DNA of 10,456 nt from a virus (UHGV-0112874), one strand, 5' to 3'. Shown: positions 9,348-10,263, counted from the first letter of the stretch. The notes: a model not told the origin generated them from the letters alone. Numbers and translations are program-made.

Positions 9348-9695
9348 CTATTTGGGTAGGGTTGTTATTTTTCTAAGTCCATACGGGCACATTGCGATAC
9401 AGCAACTTTTACTCTCAGGACACAGATTTCCTTTGGCTATTTTTCCTCCATGGCATTCATTCATATTATTAATTATATGCCAAAATACTTTGTTGAAAGG
9501 AGTTATGTTAAATATAGTGATAGGGTAAATTTTTTCGCCAATAATAACACCGTTGTTCACTTTTTTTATTTTGCTTGATGGAGGTAGAAATACATCAGAC
9601 TGATACCAGATAATTAGTTTTGTGTCACACCATACAATTGAAAATGAAATACCAGTTGAAGAGCATACAATTGTATCAATTACTAACAATTCCAT
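9348..9695 (-). CDS. Hypothetical AT-rich-codon protein with a Cys/His-rich C-terminus; antisense to the expected late transcription
   Basis: Track ORF 9348..9728 (126 aa). The internal ATG at 9695 (MELLVIDTIV...) has AAGGGA 6 nt upstream. C-terminus ...NECHGGKIAKGNLCPESKSCCIAMCPYGLRK. The long open frame in AT-rich DNA is mildly significant; no family recognised. Confidence 0.35.
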   Translation of the reverse strand: MELLVIDTIVCSSTGISFSIVWCDTKLIIWYQSDVFLPPSSKIKKVNNGVIIGEKIYPITIFNITPFNKVFWHIINNMNECHGGKIAKGNLCPESKSCCIAMCPYGLRKITTLPK

Positions 9696-10263
9696 GATTG
9701 GTCCCTTTAGTAAGTAGATGAAATACATGCTAATAGATTATAGGTGATACTTCTCGTAATTCATTGAAAAAGATCATTTTGTTGTTGGTGTTAACGGTGT
9801 GTATTGATTTGTGTGTATTTTTTTGAATTACTGATTTGTTTCTTAATTAATTTAAAACTATGGAAATATTGTTTTTGTTTATTCTTGGTTGATAAAGATA
9901 TATTTTTTATTTGGCTCTCATCTTTAAGTTGTGTTTGGTAATGGTGTAGAAATACACGGAAAATGTTGTGTGTATTTATTGCTGATAAGTTAATGGTAAA
10001 TGTGTTAATATATTGGTGATGTTATATTTTGATTGATTGTTTATATGGCATGAGGTGTGTATAACCATAATTTGAAGGTAGAAAGTTTTTTTACTATTGA
10101 TTCCGGAACTGTCGTCGCATAAAAATACATAATGGGATCGAAAAAATAACACTTTTATCATGTAGTGATTAATTGCTGTATGTGATACAGTATTAGCATG
10201 TATTGTTATTTTTATTGTTGTGTCATTGATATTCTTTTGTTTTCTGTTTTTAATAATCATACA

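Follow-up and report, generated by a model that had tools for sequence, protein, structure and literature searches.

A divergent member of the IraM anti-adaptor family encoded as antisense cargo in a lambdoid prophage

UHGV-0112874 is a viral DNA sequence of 10,456 nucleotides (nt), here called the window, meaning the whole stretch that was analysed. On its minus strand, at positions 9348-9728, an open reading frame (ORF) of 126 codons begins with ATG and lies in DNA with a GC content of 32%. Does this ORF encode a protein, and if so, what might that protein do for the phage or for its host? A first-pass annotation had judged the frame unlikely to arise by chance, had read its C-terminus as a metal-binding motif, and had taken it for an independently expressed moron. 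The ORF listing bears out the frame and its length, with the translation that had been implied. Judged by its homology, the ORF is a real gene and not an orphan, being a divergent member of the family of IraM (YcgW/ElbA; PDB 8TWD), the Escherichia coli K-12 anti-adaptor that inhibits RssB in Mg2+ starvation. The coding sequence most likely occupies positions 9348-9695 on the minus strand (stop codon counted in) and would encode a homologue of 115 amino acids (aa), an assignment that draws on a curated IraM profile, a match to the IraM structure and a signature of selection.

Membership of the IraM family

Evidence for family membership came from both profile and sequence searches. The NCBIfam model NF007393 (anti-adapter protein IraM) matched the ORF protein with 124.6 bits, compared with a curated cut-off of 121, and the match spans residues 12-120 of the 126-aa form and positions 1-111 of the 114 in the model. 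The crystallised fragment of IraM, PDB 8twd, was matched at E 1e-23 (phmmer), and the PHROGs family phrog_4407, which contains phage copies and is labelled "unknown function", at E 1e-38. K-12 IraM is 47% identical to the ORF protein over 108 aa, while identity is 45-46% for an IraL-like protein (P0004) and 43% for an IraM-like protein of Stx2 phages. A homologue look-up gave no more than the cluster of the protein itself and a single sister cluster; the family was revealed when 1.84 billion representatives were searched exhaustively with HMMER, which found only 57 related clusters. When species-representative genomes were scanned with an 8-sequence alignment, relatives were confined to the Enterobacteriaceae (Escherichia, Shigella, Citrobacter, Intestinirhabdus and Pseudescherichia), and the best match, at 59% identity, was in Citrobacter sp. 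ANG330. A homology search on the translations, which the first-pass annotation had proposed, thus leads to the IraM family. Within that family, the gene is a new and rare lineage that is otherwise ordinary.

Additional evidence came from a comparison of copies of the gene. Nineteen were recovered: the window itself, one plasmid of E. coli strain cM8a, and 17 short contigs from European Nucleotide Archive (ENA) metagenome assemblies, one of them explicitly from the human gut, and from Logan assemblies of public sequencing runs. The plasmid copy is 92% identical and is annotated by the Prokaryotic Genome Annotation Pipeline (PGAP) as a 115-aa "anti-adapter protein IraM", which means that an existing pipeline already gives the IraM name to a close relative. 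Among 5426 complete E. coli genomes, a single one had the allele. All 19 copies are intact, and they represent five alleles that fall into two groups. The ratio of nonsynonymous to synonymous substitution rates (dN/dS) between the two groups is 0.18-0.30, and the AT-rich DNA flanking and upstream of the gene has acquired indels between alleles. The gene is under purifying selection, and the disruption of the frame for which related sequences were to be checked was not seen.

The length of the ORF contributes little to this case. When the 2.2-kb cargo region in which the ORF lies was simulated 2000 times with a first-order Markov model, 3.5% of runs contained an ORF of 126 or more codons starting with ATG, so length is weak evidence that the frame is more than a chance ORF in AT-rich DNA. 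A chance origin would also have a precedent nearby, in a longer ORF of 138 codons that adjoins it on the minus strand (9976-10392). This neighbour was rejected as a gene and is considered spurious: scans of Pfam, NCBIfam and PHROGs returned no family match, and its alleles differ by frame-breaking indels of 1, 2, 3, 4, 6 and 8 nt. Gene calls for several metagenome contigs nevertheless include it, and it is partly antisense to the small RNA (sRNA) gene STnc100, described below. For the 126-codon ORF, however, the significant homology to a characterised family, the purifying selection, and the confident fold match described in the next section have already refuted a chance origin, to which we attach practically no probability. 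The statement that the frame was unlikely by chance is therefore weakly true as far as length goes; it is homology and conservation, not length, that place the ORF beyond chance.

Fold, RssB contacts and the cysteine tail

An AlphaFold2 model of the ORF protein was built on an alignment of 39 relatives and reached a predicted local distance difference test (pLDDT) score of 86.9. As modelled, the protein is an IraM/PmrD beta-barrel core followed by a conserved tail with four cysteines. The core has the antiparallel beta-barrel, hairpin and helix that are seen in the IraM(1-78) crystal, and the top Foldseek match was 8twd_A (E 1e-7; template modelling (TM) score 0.87, target-normalised; root-mean-square deviation 1.4 A; 77 columns). 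The next-best matches were three PmrD structures, which agrees with the published finding that the IraM fold resembles only PmrD (PMC10844676). The residues through which IraM contacts RssB were taken from the same study, comprising clusters I-III of 8TWD plus P66, 15 residues in all. The ORF protein is identical to IraM at eight of them (I6, F18, W22, K26, W30, I61, I64 and P66) and differs conservatively at another four (I4L, T13S, Y62F and L75I).

The fold matches also raise the alternative that the protein is a PmrD-like connector, which would act on another response regulator, perhaps by protecting or blocking a phosphorylated receiver domain such as that of PmrA, and rewire a two-component pathway instead of RpoS turnover. 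Receiver domains are the target of IraM as well as of PmrD (PMC10844676), the identity of the ORF protein to proven anti-adaptors is only 45-47%, three of the contact residues are changed, and the collection's precomputed label for the ORF protein is PF11183 (PmrD). This label was not reproduced by a direct hmmscan, in which no Pfam match was found at E up to 10 for the ORF protein, K-12 IraM or two relatives; the discrepancy is probably due to a difference in Pfam version. With identity to PmrD at about 15%, the fold alone is common to both. Moreover, the ORF protein passes the curated IraM model, retains most RssB-contact residues, and carries a tail that is specific to the IraM family. We consider a PmrD-like connector unlikely, and return to the reading of the protein as a divergent IraM.

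The tail motif, C81-x10-C92-x5-C98-x4-C103-P-Y-G in the numbering of the 115-aa form, is encoded at 9378-9455 on the minus strand. Its conservation was scored over 39 relatives that are 23-93% identical. W72, C81, C98 and C103 do not vary, and conservation is 97% at C92 and P104, which places the four cysteines among the six best-conserved positions of the IraM family. All four are present in 38 of the 39 relatives, and 34 have the exact C-x10-C-x5-C-x4-C spacing. From these sequences we derived C-x10-C-x4/5-C-x4-C-P-[YF]-G as the pattern of the family tail, which the ORF protein fits with the majority spacing of 10/5/4. The motif first proposed for the C-terminus, C-H-x10-C-x5-CC-x3-C, was off by one: the tail reads C81-H82-x9-C92-x5-C98-C99-x3-C103, that is, C-x10-C-x5-CC-x3-C. 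Its description as Cys/His-rich holds for the four cysteines, which are near-universal and have fixed spacing, but not for the histidine or for the second cysteine of the CC pair. H82 is replaced by proline in 85% of relatives, the sister allele among them, and C99 is not conserved. An incomplete set of four cysteines is rare; one case is the IraM-like protein of the Stx2k phage (L002 4760-5083, minus strand), in which glycine replaces the second conserved cysteine, the equivalent of C92.

This near-universal tail, which was left out of structural work, is the point at which the present analysis goes beyond existing annotation. Full-length IraM was unstable and insoluble, residues 79-107 were removed for the structural study, which gave the only crystal structure, and the tail was described there as less conserved and flexible (PMC10844676). 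The label "less conserved" probably reflects the positions of the tail other than the four cysteines and P104, which are more variable than the core. In the AlphaFold2 model, the tail has pLDDT values of 67-81, with about 81 at residues 91-110, and residues 91-108 form a closed loop. A profile of the tail gave only three matches in the PDB, all of them TIS11-type CCCH (C3H1) fingers aligned over C-x5-C-x-F, at E 0.56-4.7. In the IraM papers that could be searched for zinc and cysteine, no mention of cysteines or metal in IraM was found. From the pattern of its conserved residues, the four-cysteine tail is plausible as a candidate structural metal site.

Expression signals and prophage setting

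Two in-frame start codons come into question, the first ATG at 9728 and an internal ATG at 9695-9693 on the minus strand. Evidence in support of the internal start came from several sources. A Shine-Dalgarno (SD)-like AAGGGA (9702-9707, minus strand) lies 6 nt upstream of it, and AAAGGG is the same in both allele groups; the SD that the first-pass annotation had noted at this ATG is thus conserved and supports 9695 as the likely start. The near-invariant M1 of the family aligns with ATG 9695, the NF007393 match begins at residue 12 of the longer form, and PGAP starts the 92%-identical plasmid copy at the 115-aa form. N-terminal extensions are called in other lineages, but they are unrelated in sequence (P0003 versus the window). 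A perfect -10 hexamer, TATAAT (9737-9742, minus strand), is present 8 nt upstream of ATG 9728, as had been noted, with a predicted transcription start site near 9730 and a leader of about 35 nt. While its presence stands, its support for the 126-aa form does not: the 126-aa start is disfavoured because a -10 hexamer 8 nt upstream leaves no room for an SD and no leader. For these reasons, ATG 9728 was rejected as the main start. One observation favours a leaderless 126-aa form: of the four substitutions seen in the 33-nt extension, three affect third codon positions and are synonymous in that frame. Overall, the sequence indicates that the true start is most likely ATG 9695, and the upstream extension of 11 codons (9696-9728, minus strand) is most likely a 5' untranslated leader.

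All aligned alleles have the same TATAAT hexamer, which lies in a 31-nt block without any differences, and the Citrobacter homologue has a -10-like TACACT in the same register. The -35 of the gene reads as weak. At about 35 nt, the predicted leader is similar to that of iraL mRNA, whose mapped 5' sequence extends about 32 nt ahead of the start codon (PMC4045071). Over the -35 region lies a conserved upstream element of about 20 nt, GATCTTTTTCAATGAATTA (9757-9775, minus strand), which is a candidate regulator-binding site. Its consensus, GATCWTTWTCAATRRNTTAY, is kept in the window and the sister allele and, at protein identities of only 42-59%, in Citrobacter sp. ANG330, Intestinirhabdus alba and C. 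sedlakii; at K-12 iraM the element is weaker. The element contains GATC and is found about 80 nt upstream of the start codon in IraM-family genes of several genera (L011, L023, L029 and L030). It resembles the consensus for integration host factor (IHF), with one mismatch in the IHF-like WATCAANNNNTTR core. At the other end of the gene, a strong hairpin with an internal T-run (9271-9319, minus strand) lies 29 nt past the stop codon and includes a terminator-like site at 9302-9287. The 81-nt stretch containing the hairpin (9270-9350) has a folding energy of -25.3 kcal/mol (z = -4.2 compared with shuffles), and this region is conserved between alleles. The hairpin is probably the transcript end or a stabiliser.

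The window covers the early-to-late junction of a lambdoid prophage, with a repressor region, replication genes, the late antiterminator gene Q and tRNAs. The backbone is 95-96% identical to phages mEp460 and phiSTEC1575-Stx2k up to the tRNAs. Q (6399-7151, plus strand; Pfam PF03589 Antiterm, E 9e-53) is likewise 95-96% identical to its counterparts in mEp460 and the Stx2k phage, and it sets the direction of late transcription. The tRNA cluster (8022-8251, plus strand), identified with ARAGORN and Rfam as Met-CAT, one aberrant tRNA and Arg-TCT, marks the upstream edge of the cargo region. Similarity to mEp460 and the Stx phages stops just past it, at 8241-8254, and the sequences are unrelated beyond this point. 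The GC content of the cargo region is 27-36%, compared with 43-53% in the early region. No stx genes were found in the window, and the ORFs between the tRNAs and the IraM-like gene do not exceed 83 aa. The gene thus combines several features of a moron: insertion between conserved phage modules, presence or absence among near-identical phages, atypical GC content, and a promoter and terminator of its own, both predicted. The first-pass view of an antisense moron is upheld, since the gene has its own conserved -10 and SD, opposes late transcription, and is lacking in close relatives of the phage. On sequence grounds, it is a prophage cargo gene with a predicted independent promoter.

A block extending from about 9036 to beyond 10456 is common to the cM8a plasmid and gut-metagenome contigs. 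It contains a tnpB-like 3' remnant, the IraM-like gene and a divergent STnc100 gene. The remnant (9044-9210, plus strand) resembles the 3' end of the insertion sequence (IS) IS200/IS605 gene insQ/tnpB, with 73-75% identity to insQ/tnpB 3' regions, and may be what is left of a transposon end, possibly omega-RNA-like, by which the cassette was moved. A gene in such a setting could be an intact but silent passenger, an H-NS-silenced remnant in an IS-flanked block that is not expressed in the prophage. The low GC content of the surroundings, the remnant at the block edge and the weak -35 would fit this alternative, as would the position of the block among IS debris in the cM8a plasmid and the rarity of the allele among complete E. 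coli genomes. Silence is harder to reconcile with a dN/dS of 0.2-0.3 and 19 copies without frame disruption next to non-coding DNA that gathers indels, or with the conservation of the -10, the SD and the upstream element. In addition, K-12 iraM, which also lies in AT-rich acquired DNA, was reportedly found by Battesti et al. in 2012 to be functional. We regard a silent passenger as improbable, and an expressed moron remains the preferred reading.

IraM-family genes occupy similar positions in other phages. In the Stx2k phage, the order after the tRNAs is stx2AB, the STnc100 sRNA, an antisense IraM-like gene and a holin gene; in vB_EcoS-640R1, it is Q, a tRNA, two STnc100 copies, an antisense IraL-like gene, DUF1737, S, R and Rz. 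Among IMG/VR relatives that are 46-55% identical, a DUF1737, holin or lysozyme gene lies upstream on the opposite strand in 30 of 32 loci, and in three the IraM-like gene has Q on its other side. IraM-family genes thus recur as cargo between Q and the lysis genes, always on the strand opposite to late transcription.

Their consistent position beside the lysis cassette in many lambdoid phages suggests another alternative, in which the phage and not the lysogen profits from the gene: its product might, for instance, change ClpXP adaptor traffic when the prophage is induced or grows lytically. That Stx phages act on RpoS is known from the sRNA StxS (PMC7547250). The antisense orientation, however, means that Q-dependent late transcription would collide with the gene and not express it, and RssB has been described as a dedicated sigma-S adaptor that is the only one known (PMC10844676). 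Family members are also found on chromosomes outside phages, as with K-12 iraM and the Citrobacter copy beside phoPQ. A role in the service of the phage is very improbable in our judgement, and a benefit to the lysogen is the reading developed below.

A second recurrent feature of these loci is STnc100. In the window, this prophage sRNA gene lies at 10232-10449 on the plus strand (Rfam RF02076, 123.8 bits compared with a gathering threshold of 47), with a strong terminator at 10420-10437. STnc100 adjoins IraM-family genes in six independent contexts: the window, L002 (4554-4748), L022 (6362-6550 and 6826-7019), L026, L027 and L001 (9193-9410). The two genes are divergent in the window and the cM8a plasmid. 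They are convergent in the Stx2k phage, where STnc100 ends 12 nt from the stop codon, and in 640R1-type phages. A 2026 preprint on prophage Pas sRNAs covers STnc100, without a pairing to IraM-family genes.

Two further observations concern the phage backbone. The middle tRNA (8100-8173, plus strand) has an abnormal anticodon loop; ARAGORN reports it as 'tRNA-???' with a 2-nt anticodon, Rfam makes no call, and the Stx2k phage has a tRNA-Arg(tcg) at this position. Rfam also places IsrK (60 bits, 4068-4144, plus strand) and C4 antisense RNA (68 bits, 4169-4256, plus strand) within an ORF of 493 codons at 3708-5189. This suggests that the region is an antirepressor control module of the P1/P7 or Gifsy type, and that the N-terminal part of the ORF is non-coding.

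Proposed role and comparison with known systems

IraM binds RssB at the 4-5-5 face of the receiver, the segmented helical linker and the C-terminal domain, and thereby blocks delivery of the stress sigma factor RpoS to ClpXP (PMC10844676). IraL does the same job in log phase (PMC4045071). By analogy, we propose that the gene in the window is a prophage moron encoding a divergent IraM-family anti-adaptor, and consider this full explanation probable. In a lysogen, the gene would be transcribed from its own promoter near 9730, late transcription being terminated upstream. In this AT-rich DNA, H-NS would probably silence the promoter, and a regulator that responds to stress would activate it. The protein would then bind RssB, a response-regulator-like adaptor, across its receiver face, linker and C-terminal domain. 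RssB would be unable to hand RpoS to ClpXP and RpoS would accumulate, raising the general stress response to the benefit of the lysogen. The four-cysteine tail, which is dispensable for RssB binding in IraM, might form a small metal-stabilised, zinc-knuckle-like module that affects stability or regulation.

Several observations weigh against this proposal. The margin of the NF007393 match above its cut-off is only 3.6 bits. Three of the 15 RssB-contact residues, C14T, I42K and H63N, are changed non-conservatively. The binding of RssB by IraL differs from that by IraM (PMC4045071), a precedent from which the target of the ORF protein, or its mode of action, could have drifted. The TIS11-type finger matches, the sole sequence hint of a metal, are non-significant. 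The window stops at 10456, ahead of any lysis gene, so the Q-to-lysis slot is inferred from relatives. Finally, the only good match to a PhoP box (9876-9892) has one mismatch, and 0.36 such matches are expected by chance per window.

Regulation by PhoP was considered and rejected, since this lone box with one mismatch is within chance expectation and is not conserved: it lies about 145 nt upstream of the predicted transcription start, within DNA that the sister allele lacks or has in altered form. Upstream of K-12 iraM, PhoP-box sites were found only with two mismatches. The Citrobacter sp. ANG330 homologue (L023 4084-10613) shares a small islet with a gene for an AppA-like phytase, flanked by purB on one side and by phoP-phoQ on the other. 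This neighbourhood is suggestive, K-12 IraM being PhoP-induced, but no PhoP box was found directly upstream of the Citrobacter homologue despite the adjacency of phoPQ. AppY was rejected as an activator of iraM, which it does not up-regulate (PMC10057817).

In E. coli, stress tolerance, biofilm formation and virulence traits depend on the level of RpoS, which is tuned by a small set of anti-adaptors. The gene described here would add a further divergent IraM-type lineage, in the Q-to-lysis interval of lambdoid prophages, where stx is carried. Phage-driven variation in RpoS stability between strains may thus exceed what the three or four studied proteins suggest. The phage IraM-like lineages would complement the Stx-phage sRNA StxS, which acts by raising RpoS translation (PMC7547250). 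We consider the cysteine tail and the repeated pairing with STnc100 to be the most noteworthy parts of the analysis. They prompt a speculative proposal, which we think is rather doubtful: that the tail may be a metal-binding or redox-sensitive CCCH-like knuckle gating the stability or activity of the anti-adaptor, and that lambdoid phages may swap cassettes of an RpoS stabiliser and STnc100 in the Q-to-lysis interval. If the tail is such a knuckle, RpoS stabilisation would respond directly to metal or oxidative status.

How does the gene compare with systems that are already known? A first comparison is with PmrD (4HN7, 2JSO and 2RQX), a connector that protects phospho-PmrA. PmrD is also a small protein that acts on a receiver domain, and it shares the beta-barrel fold (TM scores of 0.73-0.77 to the targets). 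It differs in its low sequence identity and in its target, and its chains of 81-88 residues are too short for a four-cysteine tail.

Parallels in gene position are the Stx2-phage genes (phage 2851, Stx2c and Stx2a phages, and phiSTEC1575-Stx2k) and those of IMG/VR lambdoid prophages, which occupy the same interval, are antisense, and have STnc100 as a neighbour. Their proteins, however, are only 43-55% identical to the ORF protein. The Stx2k-phage gene comes after stx2AB and STnc100, the latter being convergent with it, whereas the gene in the window precedes STnc100, is divergent from it, and is not accompanied by stx.

IraL, found in uropathogenic E. coli CFT073 and in Shigella, is a proven RssB anti-adaptor and 58.9% identical to IraM (PMC4045071); a second comparison puts this identity at 62%. 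The IraL-like protein P0004, which also occurs in phage vB_EcoS-640R1, would be IraL itself, an inference from the identity values. Like the gene in the window, iraL is a paralogue of iraM on acquired DNA, with a sigma-70 promoter and a leader of about 32 nt (PMC4045071), and P0004 shares T13S, H63N and L75I with the ORF protein. The two nevertheless belong to different lineages: the ORF protein is less than 50% identical to IraM and IraL alike, and iraL of CFT073 is on the potB island.

The last comparison is with IraM itself. IraM has 107 aa and a tail spacing of x10/x4/x4, whereas the ORF protein has 115 aa and a spacing of x10/x5/x4, in addition to the changed contacts at positions 14, 42 and 63. 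The ORF gene lies inside the late region of a lambdoid prophage and has no convincing PhoP box, whereas K-12 iraM adjoins the e14 prophage. Against these differences, both genes are small, AT-rich and horizontally acquired, and both are associated with a prophage. At 47% identity, the two proteins share the same beta-barrel core, most of the RssB-contact residues, and the same W72 and four-cysteine tail.

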